Shown here: positions 36,953 to 46,527 of the stretch, in pieces | How the letters are laid out: each line of letters begins with the position of its first letter | Position numbering within the stretch: position 1 is the stretch's first letter | Source of the DNA: Prevotella sp. | GTDB taxonomy: Bacteria > Bacteroidota > Bacteroidia > Bacteroidales > Bacteroidaceae | Length of the DNA: 64,000 nt | Assembly (NCBI GenBank): GCA_017400455.1 | Contig: JAFPTC010000145.1 | Span: 22,696-86,695, forward strand | Reading direction: 5' to 3' | Made by a program: the position numbers and the translations under genes | Notes under the pieces: generated by a model | Told to the model about the DNA's origin: nothing | Seen by the model: only the letters and a program-made list of their open reading frames with translations | Database searches by the model: none

Positions 36953-37654
36953 TTATTTTGTAGGTGAGGTAGGTTTGGTAGGTGGAGTAGGTTCAGTAGG
37001 TTCAGTAGGTTCGGTAGGTTCGGTAGGTGCAGTAGGTTTAGTAGGTATCTCTTTACTGCACCTACCATCCCTACCAAACCTACCAAACCTACCCTCTTTG
37101 TCATAACCATATCCCCGGGCTTCCGTCCTGGCTCTGTAGCGCTGCTCCTTGATGCCTCCCTCGCGCAGGAACTGCTCGTCCTGCCAGTCTATGAGTCCGC
37201 GAATAAGGCTCAGCGCCTGGTGAATGACTATCAGTGCAATATTGGCTATCTCCTCGTCGTTGCGGCCTTCTATCTGGCGCTGGTAGTAGGCAGTGTCATT
37301 ATGTCTTTTAAACAGTGGCTGGCAAATGCGGTACTTCTCGTGCTGCGGCCCCCATATCTCCATCTGTCGCACGCGCAGATAGTCGCGGTAGTCCTCCTTC
37401 AGTTCTTCCAGGCTGCCCTTGGCAATGGTGGTCAGCCGGTGTTCGGTGTCTGTGGAGCCTTCGGCATCGCTATAGCCCTCCACGATGTTCTGCTTGCCCG
37501 ACCGCGCTGCCTGCTGCATCTGGTCTACGGTGCGGTCGTGGGCTCGGTCCATGAAACGAGTCACAAAGTAATAGGTGATATCGAATACGCACTCCGCCTT
37601 CTGGAAGGCCAGGAGAGTGCGGTAGCTGTCAATCTTTTTTCGTTTTTCGTCCAT
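36953..37654 (-). CDS. Four-helix-bundle protein (23S rRNA IVP/bAvd-like) with suffix domain
   Basis: YRTLLAFQKA, RTVDQMQQAARSGKQNIVEG, SLEELKEDYRDYL, FLREGGIKE; C-terminus reads through the 9-mer repeats. Confidence 0.88.
   Translation of the reverse strand: MDEKRKKIDSYRTLLAFQKAECVFDITYYFVTRFMDRAHDRTVDQMQQAARSGKQNIVEGYSDAEGSTDTEHRLTTIAKGSLEELKEDYRDYLRVRQMEIWGPQHEKYRICQPLFKRHNDTAYYQRQIEGRNDEEIANIALIVIHQALSLIRGLIDWQDEQFLREGGIKEQRYRARTEARGYGYDKEGRFGRFGRDGRCSKEIPTKPTAPTEPTEPTEPTEPTPPTKPTSPTK
36960..37092. repeat. Palindromic 9-mer module (GTAGGNNNN)x10 / (NNNNCCTAC)x4
   Basis: Units counted directly at 36960-37049 and 37057-37092. Confidence 0.92.
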
Positions 37655-37684: not shown

Positions 37685-37773
37685 GTAGGTTCTGTAGGTT
37701 TTGTAGGTTTTGTAGGTCTTGTAGGTTCTGTATATACTTTACCTACTCCACCTACCACACCTACCCTACCTAC
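37685..37773. repeat. Palindromic 9-mer module (GTAGGNNNN)x5 / (NNNNCCTAC)x4
   Basis: Units at 37685-37729 and 37738-37773; contains the stop codon of the upstream gene. Confidence 0.92.
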
Positions 37774-39002
37774 CCAAAGAACATCGCCGCTATGAATATC
37801 GCGGCAAGAATCCCCGCCAGGTCGGCCAGCAGGCCGCAGGTCACGGCATGGCGCGTATAGCGCACGCCCACCGAGCCGAAGTACACCGCTAATATATAAA
37901 AGGTCGTGTCCGTCGAGCCTTGGAAGATGCAGCTCAGGCGCCCCACAAACGAGTCGGCACCATAGGTGGTCATAGCGTCGACCATCATGCCACGGGCGCC
38001 GCTGCCCGACAGGGGTTTCATCAGTGCCGTGGGCAGCGCGCCCACGAAGTCGGTGTCGATGCCCACAGCCCCCAGCAGCCAGCCGATGCCGCCGATGAGC
38101 CAGTCCATGGCCCCCGAGGCACGGAACACGCCGATGGCCACGAGGATGGCCACCAGATAGGGAATGATCCTGACGGCCGTGGAAAAGCCCTCCTTAGCGC
38201 CCTCGATGAAGGCATCGTAGACGTTCACCCGCTTCCTCACGCCGGCCAGGATGAACAGCACGATGATGGTCATGAGCAGGATGTTGGCCACGGAGACGCT
38301 CACCTGGTTCATCACCACCGAGTCCAGACGGCTGAAGCCCCACAGGATGGCGGCCACGGCGGCGCACATGCCGCCCAGCGTGAGCAGCATGGTGCGGTTG
38401 AGCAGGTTGATGCGCTGATAGAGCGAGGTGACGATGACGCCGGCCAAGGTAGAGAAGAAGGTGGCCAGCAAGATAGGCATAAAGACGTCGGTGGGCGCGG
38501 CAGCTCCCATCTGCGCCCTGTACACCAGGATGCTCACGGGAATGAGGGTCAGGCCGCTGGTGTTCAGCACCAGGAACATGATCATCGGGTTCGTGGCCGT
38601 GTCCTTCTTCGGGTTCAGCTCCTGCAGCTGCTCCATGGCCTTCAGGCCCATGGGCGTGGCGGCATTGTCAAGGCCCAGCATGTTGGCCGAGAGATTCATG
38701 AAGATGCTGCCCGTCACGGGATGGCCTTTGGGCACGTCGGGGAAGAGTTTCACAAACACGGGACTGAGCCATCGCGAGAGCGCGTTGACCACGCCTCCCC
38801 GCTCGCCCACTTTCATCACGCCCAGCCACAGCGACAGCACGCCGGTGAGGCCCAGGGAAATCTCGAAGGCCGTCTTCGACTGTGCAAACGTCGAGTCCAT
38901 CATGGCGGGAAACACCTCCAGGTCGCCCAGCACCACCAGCTTCACCAGCGCAATGACGAAGGCCACCAGGAAAAACGCTATCCAAATATAGTTCAGTACC
39001 AT
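37770..39002 (-). CDS. Fused SpmA/SpmB nucleoside-recognition (gate) membrane protein
   Basis: ANMLGLDNAATPMGLKAM; MKPLSGSGA; GSTDTTFYILAVYFGSVG. Confidence 0.9.
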   Translation of the reverse strand: MVLNYIWIAFFLVAFVIALVKLVVLGDLEVFPAMMDSTFAQSKTAFEISLGLTGVLSLWLGVMKVGERGGVVNALSRWLSPVFVKLFPDVPKGHPVTGSIFMNLSANMLGLDNAATPMGLKAMEQLQELNPKKDTATNPMIMFLVLNTSGLTLIPVSILVYRAQMGAAAPTDVFMPILLATFFSTLAGVIVTSLYQRINLLNRTMLLTLGGMCAAVAAILWGFSRLDSVVMNQVSVSVANILLMTIIVLFILAGVRKRVNVYDAFIEGAKEGFSTAVRIIPYLVAILVAIGVFRASGAMDWLIGGIGWLLGAVGIDTDFVGALPTALMKPLSGSGARGMMVDAMTTYGADSFVGRLSCIFQGSTDTTFYILAVYFGSVGVRYTRHAVTCGLLADLAGILAAIFIAAMFFG

Positions 39003-39016
39003 TCAGGAAAGAATAA

Positions 39017-39141
39017 TTGACGTTGCAAAGGTAGCTGTTTTTTTCCGTTCTGCCAAACAATTCCTGGGTTTTTGTAGGGTAGTCCTAAGTTGTCTTCTTC
39101 ATTTAAACGACAACTTTGGGCAACCTGGGACGACTTTGAAC
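39017..39141 (-). promoter_or_regulatory. Inverted copy (R0) of the cassette repeat, providing the spmAB promoter
   Basis: Minus strand: AAAGTTGTCGTTTAAATGAAGAAGACAACT hairpin, then TTTG(39054-57)-N20-TACCTTTG(39026-33)-CAACG. Confidence 0.75.
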
Positions 39142-39149
39142 TATGCCGC

Positions 39150-39355
39150 GTAACTACTCAGTCATGTGTTGAATTAGACAAAAATCTCCAAAAATCTTTC
39201 AAAAATAGCTGCGCGAATTTCTATTTTTGAAGATTTGCGGGTGTGCCAAGGGCACAAAATCTACAAAAATATGCCATCAAAAGAGATTTCTGTTAGATTT
39301 TTGAAGATTTTTGTCCTTATATTTCTTGTGGTGGTCAGCATGACTGAGTAGTTAC
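39150..39355. mobile_element. IS66-type MITE, copy 1 (206 bp)
   Basis: TIR GTAACTACTCAGTCATG/CATGACTGAGTAGTTAC; perfect 8-bp TSD TATGCCGC (39142-49, 39356-63). Confidence 0.88.
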
Positions 39356-39489
39356 TATGCCGCGTAGATCTGAATAAAATCCGGAATTCAGCGCCCGCCC
39401 ACACCTATAAGCCCGCCCGCTCGGAGTAATAAGGGCGGCCGCCCTTATTAATGCGGGCGACCGCCCGAATCTGACAAACCTACGGGACG

Positions 39490-39572
39490 TAAAAAAATCT
39501 CACGTGAGATTTTTTTCTGGGAGGCCTTCCCGTGAAAAAATCTCACGTGAGAAATTTTCACGGGAAGCCTCC
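39490..39572. repeat. REP-like cluster D (2 cores)
   Basis: CACGTG at 39501 and 39544. Confidence 0.9.
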
Positions 39573-39896
39573 CTATGAGAACACGCCGCCACTGCACCAT
39601 AAGAAGCACAGGCCCCACTTTCAAGGCATCCGAGGCTCTTTCGTCCTCATTTTAAGCACGTTAGAAGGCCGTCAGTCCCCGATTTTTCCGATGGCCGAAT
39701 GCAAACGGTTGCATAAATCTTGAATAATTTTTCTCTATATTTAACAAGATTTAACTACTAATCCAGTTTAGGAATCAAATTCTTTTACTACCTTTGCGGC
39801 ACCATTCGTAATAAAAAGGCGGCCGGACTGATTCCGGCCGTGTTAACCGAATAAAATTAAAATCATATATTAACTATTTAAAAAACAAAAAGCATT

Positions 39897-41420
39897 ATGA
39901 AAAAGTATTTGATGATGGGAGCAGCAGCCCTTACAATGGGTTTCGCCTTTGTCAGCTGCTCCAGTGATGATGACATCTACAATTCGAAAGCTAAGTCGGA
40001 ACAGCTCGCTAAAAACTATGCCGAGGCTTTCGTCCAGCAGTTCGGACAGCCTGCTGCCAACCAGACTTGGGGATTCGGCCAGGCTGCAAAGTCTCGTCAG
40101 ACACGTGCCGAAGGAGATGCATTTTGTGACACAGATGGCAAATTCTGGTTTGATAAATACACAAATTTGCTGCCTGTTCCTGCCCCAATTACAGAGGAGG
40201 AACGTGCTGCCGTATATGCGGAGTTTAGCAAGGTGCATAATGACCTTGGTGAAACCATTGACTGGAGTGACTATTATGTTCAGCAAGTTTGGTCGAGTAA
40301 GAATGACCCTGCAAACACTTATACATCCTTCCATGGGCAGAATGGAGGAAATGAAGTTCAGCAAAAAGCAGCTTCTAGCCATATGGATATGTTGCTGTGC
40401 GGTTTGAGCGACACTCATTCCAATAATTTCAATGCTAATGGCACAAGTCCAATTGAAGTATGGAATGGTAAAGATTATCGTAGTGACAACCAAAAGGCTA
40501 CCTACTATGATTCTATTCAGCTTATTCGCAATTGCGATACCAAGCGTTTTGGTTATCATAACAGCTTGGATAGCAAGGATCACTACGAATACATCATTCT
40601 GAAAGTAAATGGTTCTTATTATGTAGGATTTGATTTCTGTGCTTCTTATTCTTTCAATACTCGCACTGCTGATGGTGGCTTCGTTAAAGAAAGATATGAC
40701 CAGGATCCTGGTGAAGAGTTCGATACCAACTTTAATGGCTACACATTACGTAGCAATGATGAAGTAGTGTATAATAGTGATGGAACTATTAAGGGTTATA
40801 AGGGTGGTGACAAAGACATTCACCGTGACCACAAATACAATGATTGGATTGTAAAGATTAGCCCAGCAAAGCAGGTAACCGAGCCCGTTGACGAGGTAAA
40901 GGAGCAAGGTCGTATCTTCTGCGAGGACCTGGGTACCATTGGCGACTTCGACTTCAACGACGTTGTGTTCGACGCTAAACTCTATAAGAGCGGTAAGATT
41001 GAGATTGACGTGCTCGCCGCTGGTGGCACACTGCCCATCGCTGTTGCTGGAGAGAACATCAAGATTGGCCAGATGTCTAACACTGGTGTGAACAACGGTC
41101 GTCCCACGCAGCACATCAGCATCAGTGCCGAGGAAGCTGCTAAGAATCGTTGGACTTCTTTGATTTCAATTCCTATCGTTGTAACCCGTGATATTACGGA
41201 TGCTGTTGATGGATCTGTTGAATTGACCGCTGAGCGGGGCAAAGCTCCTCAGAAGATTTGCGTTCCCCTAACAACCGATTGGGTTGATGAGTATGTGAAC
41301 ATTAACACGGCTTATCCTGACTTTGCAAAATGGGTGAAAGAACAAGTGACTCGTGAGAATTGCTTCGCTAATAAAGTTCTCAAATATGTAGACCTCGATT
41401 TGCAGAATAATAACGATTAA
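39897..41420 (+). CDS. Surface lipoprotein with DUF4842/LruC-like C-terminal domain
   Basis: Lipobox FVSC; RIFCEDLGTIGDFDFNDVVFD...LAAGGTLP; WVDEYVNINTAYPDF; lower GC than flanks. Confidence 0.75.
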   Translation: MKKYLMMGAAALTMGFAFVSCSSDDDIYNSKAKSEQLAKNYAEAFVQQFGQPAANQTWGFGQAAKSRQTRAEGDAFCDTDGKFWFDKYTNLLPVPAPITEEERAAVYAEFSKVHNDLGETIDWSDYYVQQVWSSKNDPANTYTSFHGQNGGNEVQQKAASSHMDMLLCGLSDTHSNNFNANGTSPIEVWNGKDYRSDNQKATYYDSIQLIRNCDTKRFGYHNSLDSKDHYEYIILKVNGSYYVGFDFCASYSFNTRTADGGFVKERYDQDPGEEFDTNFNGYTLRSNDEVVYNSDGTIKGYKGGDKDIHRDHKYNDWIVKISPAKQVTEPVDEVKEQGRIFCEDLGTIGDFDFNDVVFDAKLYKSGKIEIDVLAAGGTLPIAVAGENIKIGQMSNTGVNNGRPTQHISISAEEAAKNRWTSLISIPIVVTRDITDAVDGSVELTAERGKAPQKICVPLTTDWVDEYVNINTAYPDFAKWVKEQVTRENCFANKVLKYVDLDLQNNND

Positions 41421-41778
41421 TCTGAAACATCAAATACTCATATAATTTTAGCCGAGGGGGCGTCCATGCGAATGGGCGCCCCTTCAGCATGCAGACTGCT
41501 CACAGGAAAAGAAAGATTGTTGTCCAAAGTTGTCCTAAGTTGTCGTTTATAATAAAGAAGACAACTGGGGACAACTTGAAACAACTAATTAACAATGAAG
41601 AGGCGCCCCTTCAGCATGCAGACTGCTCACAGGAAAAGAAAGATTGTTGTTCTAAGTTGTCCTAAGTTGTCGTTTAAAATATAGAAGACAACTGGGGACA
41701 ACTGCACAAAATCCAATGATTTGTTTGGAGGAACGAAAAAAAGTGATTATCTTTGCAACGTGATACACTAAGCGGCGA

Positions 41779-42072
41779 ATGAAAAAGACAAGCGTCATCA
41801 AACGCCTACAAGCACTAAAGCCTCGACTTCGCGAAGTGGGAGTGCTACAACTGGGGCTTTTCGGTTCCACTGTCCGTGGAGAGAATTCCAAGGACAGCGA
41901 TATAGACGTTCTGCTCGATTTCCAGCAGGGAAAGGAGACCTACATGAACTTTATTTTTGCCTGCTCCCTACTGGAAGACTGTTTCAAGCACACGAAAGTT
42001 GATGTGGTGACCAAGAACGGCCTGAGTCCCTATATTGGCAAATCCATCTTGGAGGAAGTTGAGTATGTATAA
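41779..42072 (+). CDS. Minimal nucleotidyltransferase (MNT) antitoxin
   Basis: GLFGSTVRGENSKDSDIDVL (GSx10DxD), KVDVVT; 97 aa. Confidence 0.88.
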   Translation: MKKTSVIKRLQALKPRLREVGVLQLGLFGSTVRGENSKDSDIDVLLDFQQGKETYMNFIFACSLLEDCFKHTKVDVVTKNGLSPYIGKSILEEVEYV

Positions 42073-42105
42073 ATCTTACGTTCCTTATTTGCACCACATT
42101 CGTCA
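42065..42105 (+). pseudogene. 5' remnant of a HEPN (DUF86-like) toxin
   Basis: ATG overlapping the MNT end; MYKSYVPYLHHIR resembles HEPN N-termini, then runs into repeat R3. Confidence 0.55.
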
Positions 42106-42270
42106 AACAAAAAGATTGTTGTTCAAAGTTGTCCTAAGTTGTCGTTTAAAAAGAAGAAGACAACCGGGGACAACTTTGGACAACTACACAAAATGCAATG
42201 ATTTGTTTGGCGGAACGAAAAAAAGTGATTATCTTTGCAACGTGAATACGAAGAAGAAAGGGAAATAATT

Positions 42271-42384
42271 ATGGATGCAAACATGACGGCAGCAATTATG
42301 CTATTAACTGTCCTTGCAATAGCAATAGTAGGTCATATCTACTTTAAGATACAGGACAAGCATACTGTAGAAACAGACAATTAA
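42271..42384 (+). CDS. 37-aa single-TM small protein
   Basis: Manual translation MDANMTAAIMLLTVLAIAIVGHIYFKIQDKHTVETDN; between the R3 promoter and the R4 hairpin. Confidence 0.6.
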   Translation: MDANMTAAIMLLTVLAIAIVGHIYFKIQDKHTVETDN

Positions 42385-42641
42385 TTTACACATAGAAGGG
42401 GGCGTCCATGCGAATGGCCGTCCCCTTCATCATGCAGACTGCTCACAGGAAAAGAAAGATTGTTGTTCAAAGTTGTCCTAAGTTGTCGTTTAAAATATAG
42501 AAGGCAACAGGGGACAACTTTGGACAACTACATAAAATCCAATGATTTGTTTGGAGGAACGAAAAAAAGTGATTATCTTTGCAACGTAATAAAGCGAAAA
42601 AAAGCTGACGGCGTGCCGAAGAAACAGTTAATAAAAAAGTT

Positions 42642-42911
42642 ATGGCGACAATTACATTGAATCGTGCATTGTACACGCAGATACAGAACTACGCTAAGGA
42701 AGACAACCTGAGCGTGGATGAGTGGGTGACCATGCTCATTAAAAAGTTTGTGCCAGCAAAGAAAAAGGGCTATAGGATGAAAAGGATTGAGGAGCTTTCG
42801 CCAGAACTGCAAGCTATAATTGGCTTTGCGAAGCCTAATGTCACCAATGACGATGACATGAACGGCGACAAGGCAAGAATGGATTATCTGACAGAGAAGT
42901 ATGCCCAATGA
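42642..42911 (+). CDS. Putative type II antitoxin (ribbon-helix-helix-like)
   Basis: 89 aa, MATITLN...YAKEDNLSVDEWV, ends MDYLTEKY; ATGA overlap with the PIN gene. Confidence 0.65.
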   Translation: MATITLNRALYTQIQNYAKEDNLSVDEWVTMLIKKFVPAKKKGYRMKRIEELSPELQAIIGFAKPNVTNDDDMNGDKARMDYLTEKYAQ

Positions 42912-43051
42912 TGCGCGTTTTTGTTGATACGAATATCTTGCTCGACATCATTGAAGGGCGGCAAAAGTTTCTCTTGGCCTCGTCGAATGTTTTCGATTTA
43001 GGCATTACCGGGCAGATACAATATGTCAGGACACGGAACTTTAGCAATTAA
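42908..43051 (+). pseudogene. Truncated PIN/VapC toxin
   Basis: MMRVFVDTNILLDII (PIN start motif) but only 47 codons; stop abuts repeat R5. Confidence 0.75.
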
Positions 43052-43185
43052 CACTGAAGAGACGCCCCTTCAGCATTTAGAACGCTAACAAGAAAAGAAA
43101 GATTGTTGTTCAAAGTTGTCCTAAGTTGTCGTTAAAATATAGAAGACAACAGGGGACAACTTTGGACAACTACACAAAATCCAAT

Positions 43186-43576
43186 GATAGGTATAGGCGT
43201 TTAGGCCACACTTTTGTGTAACACGATACTCCCATCACTTTTTCAACACAGAGACACAGAGGACACTGAGGGAATCACATAGATACAAGACTCCGAGTGT
43301 GACAGAGCGTCCTAAAGGTCTTCACAGAGAGCTACCGCTGTGTTTTGACGGGCGAAGCCTCTGTGCAAGGCCTTTAGGCTCTCTTGTAGTCTCTGCGACT
43401 GGCTATACATCCTCTGTGTCCTCTGCGTCTCTGTGTTGAAAAAATTACCGCCTCAACATACCCAAGGCGTTGCCCTGGGTTGGTCGTTTTTGCCCCCTGC
43501 GCTCAGTGGTAACTTTTCACGTTGCAAACATAGTAACTTTCAGGGCGTGAGTGCGGTCTAAACGCCTATACCTATC
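43186..43576. mobile_element. Non-autonomous ~390-bp element with 27-bp terminal inverted repeats and an internal ~205-bp hairpin
   Basis: GATAGGTATAGGCGTTTAGGCCACACT / AGTGCGGTCTAAACGCCTATACCTATC (25/27); interrupts repeat R5. Confidence 0.7.
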
Positions 43577-43581
43577 TAATG

Positions 43582-43787
43582 GTAACTACTCAGTCATGCT
43601 GACCACCAGAAGAAATATAAGGACAAAAATCTTCAAAAATCTAACATAAATCTCTTTTGATGTCATATTTTTGTAGATTTTGTGCCATTGGCACACCTGC
43701 AAATCTTCAAAAATAGATAATCGCGCAGCTAATTTTGAAAGATTTTTGGAGATTTTTGTCTAATGCAACACATGACTGAGTAGTTAC
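43582..43787. mobile_element. IS66-type MITE, copy 2 (inverted relative to copy 1)
   Basis: Same 17-bp TIR; ATCCAATG at 43788-95 duplicates 43179-86. Confidence 0.88.
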
Positions 43788-43823
43788 ATCCAATGATTTG
43801 TTTGGCGGAACGGAATAACACTG

Positions 43824-44735
43824 TTAGCGCTCGAAGCTGGCTTGCGGCCGGATGTTGCGGGGATGGTGTTGCAACACCTCGCGGCGCAGCGTCTGCATGC
43901 TGATGTGAGTGTAAATCTCGGTGGTGCCAATAGACTCGTGGCCCAGCAGAGCCTGGATGACGCGCAGGTCGGCGCCACCTTCGAGCAGGGCGGTGGCGAA
44001 GGAGTGGCGCAGGGTGTGGGGCGAGATGGTCTTGGTGATGCCGGCCTCCTGCGCCTGACGCTTGAGCATGATGAGGATCATGGTGCGCGTGAGGTGGGCG
44101 CCGCGCCGGTTGAGGAAGACATAGTCCTCCTCACCGGGCTTGATCTTCAGCTGCTGACGCCAAGGCAGGTAGTTGTCAATCTCATGCAGGGCGCGGTCGC
44201 TGATGGGCACGAGACGCTCCTTCGACCCCTTTCCCACGATGCGCAGGTATTTCTCGTCGGCATAGAGCTGGCTCCAGCGCAGGCTGACCAGCTCGCTGAC
44301 ACGTAGCCCGCAGGAGAAGAGCACCTCGATGATGGCGCGGTTGCGATGGCCCTCGGGCACGCTCAGGTCGATGGAGTCCTCCAGCTGGTCCACCTCCTGC
44401 GGGGTGAGGAACTCAGGCAGATGCTCGCCCAGCACGGGACTCTCAAGCAGCTCGGTGGGGTCCTGGTCGAGATAGCCGTCCTGCACCATGAAGCGATAGA
44501 GCGAGCGCACGCCGCTGAGGATGCGGCACTGCGAGCGCGGCCCGATGCCGATGTCGTGCAGTCCGGCGGCAAAGGTCTGCAGGTCGGATAGCTCGACTTG
44601 GGTGAGCGTCTTGCCCTCGCCGTTGAGATAGGTAATCAGCTTCTCCACGTCGCGCCGGTAGGCCTCGATGGTGTTGGGCGACATGGAGCGCTGCAGCTTC
44701 AGGTAGCGCAGGTAGCGTGGGAGGATGTCTTGCAT
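43824..44735 (-). CDS. xerD: Tyrosine recombinase XerD
   Basis: SCGLRVSEL, GKGSKERLVP, HTLRHSFATALLEGGADLRVIQALLGHESIGTTEIYTH; start reassigned to MQDIL. Confidence 0.85.
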   Translation of the reverse strand: MQDILPRYLRYLKLQRSMSPNTIEAYRRDVEKLITYLNGEGKTLTQVELSDLQTFAAGLHDIGIGPRSQCRILSGVRSLYRFMVQDGYLDQDPTELLESPVLGEHLPEFLTPQEVDQLEDSIDLSVPEGHRNRAIIEVLFSCGLRVSELVSLRWSQLYADEKYLRIVGKGSKERLVPISDRALHEIDNYLPWRQQLKIKPGEEDYVFLNRRGAHLTRTMILIMLKRQAQEAGITKTISPHTLRHSFATALLEGGADLRVIQALLGHESIGTTEIYTHISMQTLRREVLQHHPRNIRPQASFER

Positions 44736-44748
44736 CTGGCTTGGGGTG

Positions 44749-45918
44749 TTAAAGATGAGGAAGGGCATCAGCTATGCGCTGCAGGCCCTCCATGAGCTGG
44801 CTGCGCGGACAGGCGATGTTCAGTCGCAGGTAGCCCTGTCCGCTCTGCGGGCCGTACATGGTGCCAGGGTTCACCCACACGTGGGCCTTGTCGAGCAGGC
44901 GGTCGGCGAGCTGGTCGACGGGCATGCCCATGGCCGAGACATCGACCCAGGGCAGGTAGGTGCCTTCCAAGCGGCACACGCGCCACTGAGGCAGGTGAGC
45001 TTCAGCAAACGCACAGAGCGCACGGTAGTTTTCCCAAAGATACTGGCAGAGCTGGTCGAGCCACTCCTCGCTCTCGTTATAGGCAGCTTGAAGGGCGACG
45101 ATGCCGAAGGGGTTGACGTCGCACACCTCGTTGATGTTGATGGCGCGGTCTATGCGGCGGCGCCAGGCAGGGTCGGAGCAGATGATGTTGGCAATCTGCA
45201 GGCCGGCGGTGTTGAAGTTCTTCGACGGCGAGTTCATCACCACACAGCGGTCGGTGATGGTGCCGAAGGGCACAAAGCACTGGCCGGGCATGGTCAGCTC
45301 GCAGTGGATCTCGTCGCTGACAACGGTGACGTCGTGGCGCTGGCAGATGTCATACATCTGCTGCAGCTCCTGGCGCGTCCACACGCGGCCACAGGGGTTG
45401 TGGGGGTTGCAGAGCAGGAAGAGGGTGGTCTTCTCGTCGGCGCACTTTGCCTCGAAGTCCTGCCAGTCGACGGTGAAGGAGTCCTGGTTGTTGCGTTGGC
45501 AACGCAACAAACTCGACTCCAGCACCTCGCAGCCGTTGTTGCGGATGCTGCTGAAGAAGCAGTTATAGGCCGGCGAGAGGATGAGCACCTTCTCGCCCGG
45601 CATGGTGAGGGCCTTGATGACGCACGACATGGCGGGCACCACGGCGGTGGTGTAGAGAATAGCGTCGCGACGTATCTCCCACTGATGGCGGCGGCGGAAC
45701 CAGCCAATGACGGCCTCGTAATAGCTCTCGGGCACGATGTTATAGCCAAAGACACCATGGGCCACACGCTCTTCCAAAGCACGCTGAATGGCGGGGGCCA
45801 CACGGAAGTCCATATCGGCCACCCAGAGGGGAATGACATCATCGTAGGGACACTCGTCCCACTTCACACAGTTGGTGCCGCGACGGCAGACCTGTTCATC
45901 AAAAATACTTTTTTCCAT
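44749..45918 (-). CDS. PatB/MalY-type PLP-dependent cystathionine beta-lyase
   Basis: PLWVADMDF, LCNPHNPCGRVW, SDEIH, SPSKNFNTAGL. Confidence 0.92.
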   Translation of the reverse strand: MEKSIFDEQVCRRGTNCVKWDECPYDDVIPLWVADMDFRVAPAIQRALEERVAHGVFGYNIVPESYYEAVIGWFRRRHQWEIRRDAILYTTAVVPAMSCVIKALTMPGEKVLILSPAYNCFFSSIRNNGCEVLESSLLRCQRNNQDSFTVDWQDFEAKCADEKTTLFLLCNPHNPCGRVWTRQELQQMYDICQRHDVTVVSDEIHCELTMPGQCFVPFGTITDRCVVMNSPSKNFNTAGLQIANIICSDPAWRRRIDRAININEVCDVNPFGIVALQAAYNESEEWLDQLCQYLWENYRALCAFAEAHLPQWRVCRLEGTYLPWVDVSAMGMPVDQLADRLLDKAHVWVNPGTMYGPQSGQGYLRLNIACPRSQLMEGLQRIADALPHL

Positions 45919-46119: not shown

Positions 46120-46527
46120 TTAGAGGGATTGGCGGGAAAGTTTGATGCGGTCATACAGGCGGAACTTACGCTGAATCTGGATGCGGTCGGCACCGAAGTT
46201 AATCAGGAGACCGTCATCAATGCCAGTGGCTGTGAGGTAGTTAACCAGCTGCACTTCGTGCATGGTTGTCAGGGCGGCGATGGCCTTCAGCTCCACGATG
46301 ACGCGGTCTTCCACTATCATGTCGGCACGATAGTTGCCCACTTCCCGTCCTTTGTACATCACCTTCAAGGGAATCTCAGTCTGAACAGAGAGCCCACGGT
46401 CCTTCAGTTCCAAGAACATCGCGTTCTTATAGACATTCTCCTCAAACCCTGGGGTCAGCTGACTGCGCACCTCCTTTGCACAATCCTTTATCTCCTCTAT
46501 CAGCGCCTCTATTCCCATCTTATCCAT
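46120..46527 (-). CDS. GxxExxY protein (PD-(D/E)XK nuclease-like)
   Basis: PGFEENVY; YRADMIVEDRVIVELKA; HEVQLVNYL; GLLINFG. Confidence 0.92.
   Translation of the reverse strand: MDKMGIEALIEEIKDCAKEVRSQLTPGFEENVYKNAMFLELKDRGLSVQTEIPLKVMYKGREVGNYRADMIVEDRVIVELKAIAALTTMHEVQLVNYLTATGIDDGLLINFGADRIQIQRKFRLYDRIKLSRQSL

Follow-up and report, generated by a model that had tools for sequence, protein, structure and literature searches.

Introduction

Small accessory genes set between repeats are known from the promoter-early stem-loops (PeSLs) of T4-type phages, for which mini-circles were demonstrated in the sections of PMC2839356 dealing with them, and from integrons, whose toxin-antitoxin (TA) cassettes often carry promoters according to the relevant part of PMC8876359. 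A host pathway, homology-facilitated illegitimate recombination, inserts foreign DNA by way of homology on one side and an illegitimate joint on the other, as outlined in PMC3240628. The present text concerns an array of repeated modules and small operons in a 64,000-nucleotide stretch of Prevotella DNA (the window, on contig C138); no description of its layout was found in the main texts of the open-access literature. A first-pass annotation had read it as a non-integron gene-capture array of portable hairpin-promoter repeats ending at a tyrosine recombinase gene. According to the present analysis, the array is a series of small foreign operons, mostly TA pairs, which differs from strain to strain and is interspersed with copies of a resident spacer, and it appears reasonably probable that the insertions each duplicated this spacer and that host homologous recombination between the copies turns the units over.

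The locus belongs to a rumen Prevotella: the runs containing the region come from gut metagenomes of cattle or other animals, and the named members of the spmAB protein cluster are Prevotella. The assembly behind the window comprises 2.5 Mb and is 71% complete. The array is not an assembly artefact, because contigs of independent runs span its junctions.

Results

Repeat modules

The five direct copies of the module described by the first-pass annotation were recovered by alignment as repeat family D1 (at 41479, 41606, 42078, 42422, and 43065), and R2 to R4 share 93-96% identity across palindrome and promoter. A sixth, inverted module (R0), 76-77% identical to R2-R4, lies directly upstream of spmAB and is its predicted promoter.

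41454..41587, + strand: R1, GC hairpin and palindrome of 10-mers (GTTGTC..GACAAC), without promoter
41596..41760, + strand: R2, short hairpin, palindrome with a 10-bp deletion, and predicted promoter motif (41724-41755)
42105..42245, + strand: R3, palindrome and predicted promoter motif (42206-42237), without hairpin
42394..42590, + strand: R4, full module of long hairpin, palindrome, and predicted promoter motif (42550-42581)
43046..43188, + strand: R5a, short hairpin, palindrome, and beginning of the promoter spacer
43186..43787, no strand: insertions within R5, an element of ~390 bp with 27-bp inverted ends that encloses a 205-bp inverted-repeat element (43239-43443), followed by a 206-bp MITE (miniature inverted-repeat transposable element)
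43788..43818, + strand: R5b, promoter half with the -33 box but lacking the -7 box, stopping just short of the xerD stop codon
39020..39135, - strand: R0, palindrome and TTTG-N20-TACCTTTG at 39026-39057

The motif TTTG-N19-21-TAnnTTTG, which represents the Bacteroidota promoter consensus as given in the pertinent part of PMC7366714, was counted over positions 41401-43850 and occurs there exactly three times (at 41724, 42206, and 42550), as against a mean of 0.018 and a maximum of 1 in 500 shuffles; a sigma-70 promoter scan does not fit this phylum. These three positions agree with the first-pass annotation, as do the abutting of R1 and R2 and the end of module similarity a few bases past the -7 box. 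The hairpin assigned to the full module does exist in a long and a short form, but is lacking in R3. R5 indeed ends before the xerD stop codon as annotated, but is not one copy, being cut at 43188 by ~600 bp of nested inverted-repeat elements and ending in a tail without -7 box. No cognate transposase was identified for the three nested inverted-repeat elements, which are built of 9-10-mer repeats (43186-43787, 39150-39355), and searches against Rfam gave no match for nine loci including the array, apart from one chance-level match (E 0.23) elsewhere.

Operons between the modules

The annotation had placed a different, unrelated small gene after each of R2, R3, and R4. The units are indeed unrelated, but the apparent single genes are remnants of two-gene operons:

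41779..42072, + strand: MNT (MntA-like) antitoxin, 97 aa, intact
42065..42101, + strand: HepT (HEPN) toxin remnant, first 12-13 codons with the rest deleted; intact in the L024 allele (119 aa)
42242..42384, + strand: unit 2, deleted DUF6722 gene and a hydrophobic 37-aa open reading frame (ORF; 42271-42384), the deletion lying between two A-rich microhomologies; 73 aa in the L023 DUF6722 allele
42642..42911, + strand: DUF6364 putative antitoxin, 89 aa, intact
42908..43051, + strand: PIN toxin remnant, gene cut at 43020 leaving 47 aa; intact in the L023 allele (142 aa)

Both toxins and DUF6722 are thus shortened by deletions in the window strain and intact elsewhere. By profile match, the intact alleles are predicted members of TA families (MNT with HepT-like, E 9e-25; DUF6364 with PIN_3, E 2e-18), and they have the type II/VII layout, in which the antitoxin gene overlaps the downstream toxin gene, as far as the sequence goes. 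Intact and cut toxin alleles both circulate, the protein clusters comprising 10 members for intact HepT (one of them cut at 61 aa), 13 for intact PIN, and 2 members from 9 contigs for the cut PIN. The HepT deletion is spanned by contigs of four runs from four studies, and the PIN break by those of three, and one (X9) continues past the break into other sequence. Among the contigs examined, no joint diagnostic of a circle was seen. No donor can be named, because the cassettes have no match in plasmid or phage collections.

Variation between strains

Comparison within the species relies on four metagenome contigs (L021-L024), few and short, which were found by a scan for the palindrome-promoter junction. 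All represent this locus and all four differ from the window, so that the identical gene content in relatives which the annotation had set against its own proposal is not observed. L021 has no MNT unit, and R1-R2 stand directly before unit 2. In L022 unit 2 is missing, its slot being filled by a copy of the R1-R2 block that includes the 10-bp deletion of R2, and exchange between non-adjacent copies is therefore needed. L023 carries both DUF6722 and PIN in intact form, while the sole unit of L024 is the intact MNT-HepT pair. The break points of gene gain or loss fall within the repeats in L021, L022, and L024. A further contig, L025 in genome G425, was not counted as representing a second species; it may be a mis-binned contig of the window's species, because its R1 variant recurs in run X9 and the xerD gene of G425 is only 76% identical.

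Origin of the spacer and dispersal of the palindrome

Two resident genes of the window are needed to trace the repeat:

39897..41420, + strand: DUF4842/LruC-like lipoprotein gene, body replaced between strains, with conserved 5' end and 3' untranslated region (UTR)
37770..39002, - strand: spmAB (Gate-domain membrane protein), resident; directly downstream of a DUF4842-like gene on the same strand in the relatives G247 and G425

On one strand of G247, the DUF4842-like gene is succeeded by that same 3' UTR, then by a single copy of this GC hairpin, which has a T-run there, and by a promoter motif before spmAB; the R1 hairpin is orthologous to this single one. The other three of the five genomes examined have unrelated genes upstream of spmAB. 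Because G247 has 3' UTR and hairpin once before spmAB, and G425 the same gene order, the module is most simply interpreted, by sequence comparison, as the resident DUF4842-spmAB spacer with an added palindrome. An inversion in the lineage of the window would then have left R0 at spmAB and set R5 against xerD. The two copies of the 206-bp MITE-like element were considered as the sites of this inversion and rejected, since each retains its own 8-bp target duplication.

39150..39355, no strand: MITE-like element of 206 bp, flanked by an 8-bp target duplication and bearing 17-bp terminal inverted repeats; recurs at 43582-43787

About ten copies of this element are present in the assembly. Positions 39488-39573 hold a palindromic repeat with a 43-bp period that gives hundreds of BLAST matches across the assembly and resembles a repetitive extragenic palindromic (REP) family. 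The DUF4842-like gene itself is a hypervariable surface-protein slot: its body differs in each contig (window, L021 66-1439, L024 1-50, L025 1-1926), with 34-41% amino acid identity among the three that can be compared, and its first 146 nt (in L021) and 3' UTR are conserved.

The annotation had also set against its proposal the case of a module that is a genome-wide dispersed MITE without link to gene capture. Part of the module is indeed a dispersed repeat: a motif scan located the palindrome and a 127-bp hairpin-palindrome unit at 11 sites of the assembly, 3 of them in the array, and BLAST matches of the palindrome occur on 7 other contigs, but the full combination of palindrome and promoter was found only in the array and at R0. 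One exact match of the 20-mer was found in the species collection, and none in the viral contigs or the phage collection. The module was also considered as a genus-wide element and rejected, as only partial matches to a generic promoter or a related palindrome were found, in 4/60 relatives and 8/400 genus genomes. The 127-bp unit is present in shifted registers, nested in other repeats, at C65:23160-23295, C121:22147-22256, and C79:46078-46190, and these copies are possibly traces of a circular intermediate. In another genome, G003, a related GTTGTC..GACAAC palindrome is repeated in tandem with a period of 97-223 bp and without genes (L004 and L010).

Such dispersal invites a PeSL-type or REP/MITE-type explanation, in which the palindrome would be a mobile repeat, operons between its copies would leave as circles and re-enter any other copy by homology, and the repeat would travel with the cassette. 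It would account for the 11 sites, for the three outlying copies matching the R1/R2 tandem in shifted registers, as a circular or tandem intermediate would give, for the gene-less arrays of G003, and for the exchange between non-adjacent copies in L022. However, no outlying palindrome was seen with a TA operon or a promoter, the same operons occur in other species without the window's repeat, the spacers of the G407 and G298 arrays described below are local, and no Y1/RAYT transposase (PF01797) was found in the 71%-complete assembly. We regard repeat-borne circles as unlikely.

The same layout in other Prevotella genomes

Of 400 genus genomes, 12 contain a DNA homologue of one of the two TA operons and 5 a homologue of the other. 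Sixteen loci entered a test of close homologues, in which bracketing was defined as a direct repeat of at least 25 bp on both sides of the locus; L091 was left out as a partial match of 118 bp, and two loci with short flanks were counted as misses. All 16 lie at unrelated sites and none carries the window's repeat, and 7/16 are bracketed by a direct repeat of their own (29-323 bp), compared to 2 of 258 gene blocks of the window's genome. Among HepT loci, 6 of 25 are bracketed after 5 of 30 were dropped for short flanks, one of the six repeating a locus of the first set, whereas the controls gave 0/24 for xerD (5/29 dropped) and 1/177 for tiles. The p value of 7e-6 for HepT bracketing is inflated by kinship, and the p values in general overstate the case because several homologues are close kin.

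The bracketed loci form arrays of two to four copies. Four copies of a 120-bp terminator-promoter spacer stand behind a SusC/SusD-like pair in G298, the cargo being ORF6N, DUF6364-PIN, and two PIN-type units that are broken; this repeat is local, the genome containing the 4 array copies, 1 partial, and 1 weak match. G095 has three copies starting from the upstream stop codon and two MNT-HepT units, the last copy preceding a resident gene of 846 aa. Four copies are found in G200, three in G169, a mixed array in G202, and in G407 two copies that occur nowhere else in its genome. The copies start directly at a stop codon or at most 36 nt away from one, and they run up to the -33 box in G095 and G298 and up to the -7 box in the window, G169, and G200. 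At the G407 junction, the end of the PIN gene and the end of the resident gene share a 12-nt near-match. No recombinase gene was evident in the ORF lists of the mapped array regions, of which only some ORFs were scanned against Pfam; one IS1595 fragment lies near the G202 array. Toxin genes are also broken in the arrays of G298 (L112 7100-7824) and G202 (L113 5814-6640), where the antitoxin-like genes are whole.

The genome of the window holds other foreign stretches inside direct repeats of local DNA of 41-157 bp, namely C79:52831-54722, C139:19814-21137, C64:876-1512, C55:27977-28405, and C123:21874-23196. A 137-bp repeat brackets the C79 stretch, whose contents are a GNAT TA pair and one half of a foreign gene. 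The C64 stretch duplicates a housekeeping gene's promoter along with its first codons.

Two further explanations bear on these arrays. Whole spacer-operon units might have been duplicated in tandem, after which the coding part would have been replaced and gene conversion would have held the spacers uniform as far as the stop codon and operator. This would suit G095, G200, and G202, where two or three different MNT-HepT units stand in a row, and also the adjacent DUF4842 gene, itself swapped between conserved flanks. Yet it leaves the first unit unexplained, the three units of the window are unrelated, and two-copy cases such as G407 lack a paralogous unit, so that we give it an outside chance.

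Alternatively, the arrays might represent an undescribed gene-capture system of Prevotella, in which a dedicated enzyme acting in trans would open the resident spacer with a long staggered cut, splice in gene-sized pieces or whole operons, from promoter box to stop codon, and so duplicate the spacer at every insertion. Cas1-Cas2 duplicates the CRISPR repeat, and transposases of the IS1634 type make long target duplications. In several species the boundaries repeatedly fall at stop codons and promoter boxes; this, the near-complete copy added per unit, and the frequency of the layout in the genus speak for such an enzyme. On the other hand, the mapped array regions offer no candidate besides the IS1595 fragment, neither an IS1634 nor a Y1 transposase was found in the 71%-complete assembly, the repeats vary in sequence and length (29-323 bp), and the cassettes have no common ends, which makes this system quite unlikely. 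If it were real, the arrays would be CRISPR-like with gene-sized spacers, providing a renewable store of TA defence modules or, with the toxin deleted, of antitoxins.

The neighbouring XerD

43824..44768, - strand: xerD, housekeeping tyrosine recombinase, adjacent to the array

The adjacent recombinase scores 329.6 against the XerD model TIGR02225, exactly at its cut-off of 329.6, and 126 bits against the integron-integrase model TIGR02249 (cut-off 265), and is thus not classified as IntI. It is one of three tyrosine recombinase matches in the assembly, the others lying on C93 and C101, and xerD matches at E 1e-100 or better occur in 125 of 400 genus genomes. A dif-like site is 28 bp long and has an (A/T)TAA-N6-TTA(T/C) core, and one half of an attC site reads RYYYAAC. 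The other half, GTTRRRY, is specified in the corresponding part of PMC8876359. No pair of the form RYYYAAC...GTTRRRY with 40-150 bp between the halves is present on either strand of 41401-43850. The dif core is absent from every module, although a stricter pattern also found no chromosomal dif in the incomplete assembly, leaving the search without a positive control. The earlier judgement that the array is not an integron and that XerD looks like the housekeeping enzyme agrees with these scores and with the lack of attC pairs.

One might nevertheless suppose that XerD, together with XerC, uses the palindromes like dif sites and recombines them, or that an integron-like platform of XerD is present; the gene abuts R5b, and the inner palindrome consists of two 11-bp arms around a 4-5-bp centre. 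This linkage was rejected and is highly improbable: apart from the housekeeping score and the missing dif cores and attC pairs, none of 21 close xerD orthologues (20 of the top matches and that of G425) has the array or spmAB in the downstream 1.7-5 kb, 0/24 xerD loci are bracketed, and xerD of G425 lies ~13 kb from the DUF4842-spmAB junction. A portable site dedicated to the recombinase is not supported, the module being a copy of a resident spacer, the close xerD orthologues lacking the array, and other Prevotella using unrelated local spacers with no recombinase gene in the mapped regions. Elsewhere in the window, a four-helix-bundle (23S IVP-like) gene at 36953-37654 and a GxxExxY nuclease-like gene at 46120-46527 lie between housekeeping genes, each by tandem repeats of short units.

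Discussion

Proposed origin and turnover of the array

Spacer duplication upon insertion, with turnover by host recombination, is the reading favoured here, and its insertion step is inferred from end products. What the sequences themselves display are the repeats, the operons, the differences between strains, the orthologous hairpin, and the recurrence of the layout with other spacers in other Prevotella. The dispersed palindrome of 10-mers would first have entered the hairpin-promoter spacer. A foreign operon would then have been copied in, by microhomology-guided template switching or homology-facilitated illegitimate recombination, with the 5' junction at a -33 or -7 promoter box common to donor and recipient, as to the whole phylum, and the 3' junction at or just past the operon's stop codon, where the copy would rejoin the chromosome upstream of the spacer and so copy the spacer twice. 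Each further unit would add one more spacer copy, and RecA-type crossover or conversion between the copies would remove, restore, or replace units. An intact toxin would delay the loss of its unit, and toxin deletion would precede loss; TA operons may accumulate because of this delay. Finally, an inversion would have parted the array from spmAB, with R0 staying there and R5 landing against xerD.

Several observations weigh against this reading. Gene content does differ between strains, as expected for the gene-capture array of the first-pass annotation, but the strain contigs contain no insertion event, circle, or new cassette, and the unit order is constant in all four; all data from within the species therefore fit decay and conversion of a single three-unit ancestor. 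The hairpin of the array lacks a T-run and is not called as a terminator on the + strand, and the promoter of G247 resembles the consensus only, not R0. Nine of the 16 close homologues and 19 of the 25 HepT loci are unbracketed, as is the other MNT-HepT pair of the window's genome (on C52), and the controls come from other genomes or gene classes and rely on a crude gene caller. DUF6722 was rejected as a general marker of arrays, with 1/29 loci bracketed by a match that looks coding. The repeats of G218 and G202 are partly dispersed in their genomes, and extended 3' microhomology is seen in only one of the four arrays where it could be judged. Gene conversion at a later stage, or an enzyme, could likewise have produced boundaries that lie so sharply at stop codons and promoter boxes.

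The arrival of chromosomal TA operons without an evident vehicle is poorly explained, and spacer-operon-spacer units recur in Prevotella. They leave a countable signature, found at roughly one in four of the tested HepT loci, with up to four copies and no linked recombinase. The stages of a cycle of birth, addiction, toxin loss, and excision would coexist in one species. The arrays, which attC-based tools would not flag, may also be a place to mine for small defence genes of Bacteroidota. If an enzyme stands behind them, they would involve a new integration chemistry; if host recombination alone does, they would be the bacterial-chromosome counterpart of phage PeSL shuffling.

Comparison with known systems

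Like integrons and CALIN elements, as these are presented in the consulted part of PMC8876359, the array shows a repeat-gene-repeat order, many promoter-bearing TA operons, repeats starting near stop codons, and variable content. It differs from them in having no IntI, attC core pair, or attI, in placing the promoter inside the repeat, and in using a host spacer as the repeat. The contrast drawn by the first-pass annotation with normally promoterless integron cassettes is weaker than stated, because TA cassettes of integrons often have promoters of their own, as that same part of PMC8876359 indicates.

The GTTGTC..GACAAC palindrome shares with REP, REPIN, BIME, and MITE sequences, in the terms used in the sections of PMC5581495 on these repeats, its extragenic position, its dispersal, its occurrence in tandem arrays, and its nesting with inverted-repeat elements. 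It is unlike the REPs described there in its low copy number, it accounts for just a third of the module, and the arrays of other species do not contain it. No RAYT was found in the 71%-complete assembly. Neither gene-bearing arrays nor group 2 RAYTs that flank gene cassettes are described in the portions of PMC5581495 on these repeats.

With respect to the integration pathway outlined in PMC3240628, the product seen here carries a target duplication of 30-320 bp. The DUF4842 gene recalls the lpl cluster of Staphylococcus aureus, in which lipoprotein genes are diversified by recombination at conserved stretches, as the relevant part of PMC2568036 describes; there, however, the conserved stretch is central in tandem paralogues, whereas here one gene has its body exchanged, with the 5' end and the 3' UTR on either side of it conserved.

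The PeSLs of T4-type phages resemble the array in that a stem-loop and a promoter, predicted in our case, are repeated between small accessory genes, and in that genes are gained and lost, probably so in our case, by recombination between neighbouring copies, no dedicated recombinase being identified in the pertinent sections of PMC2839356. The array differs in its location on a bacterial chromosome, in its TA cargo, and in a local spacer that is different in each array, while the PeSLs form one genome-wide family as far as PMC2839356 details them. The array would work in a PeSL-like manner, but is chromosomal, TA-rich, and built on a different local spacer in each case.

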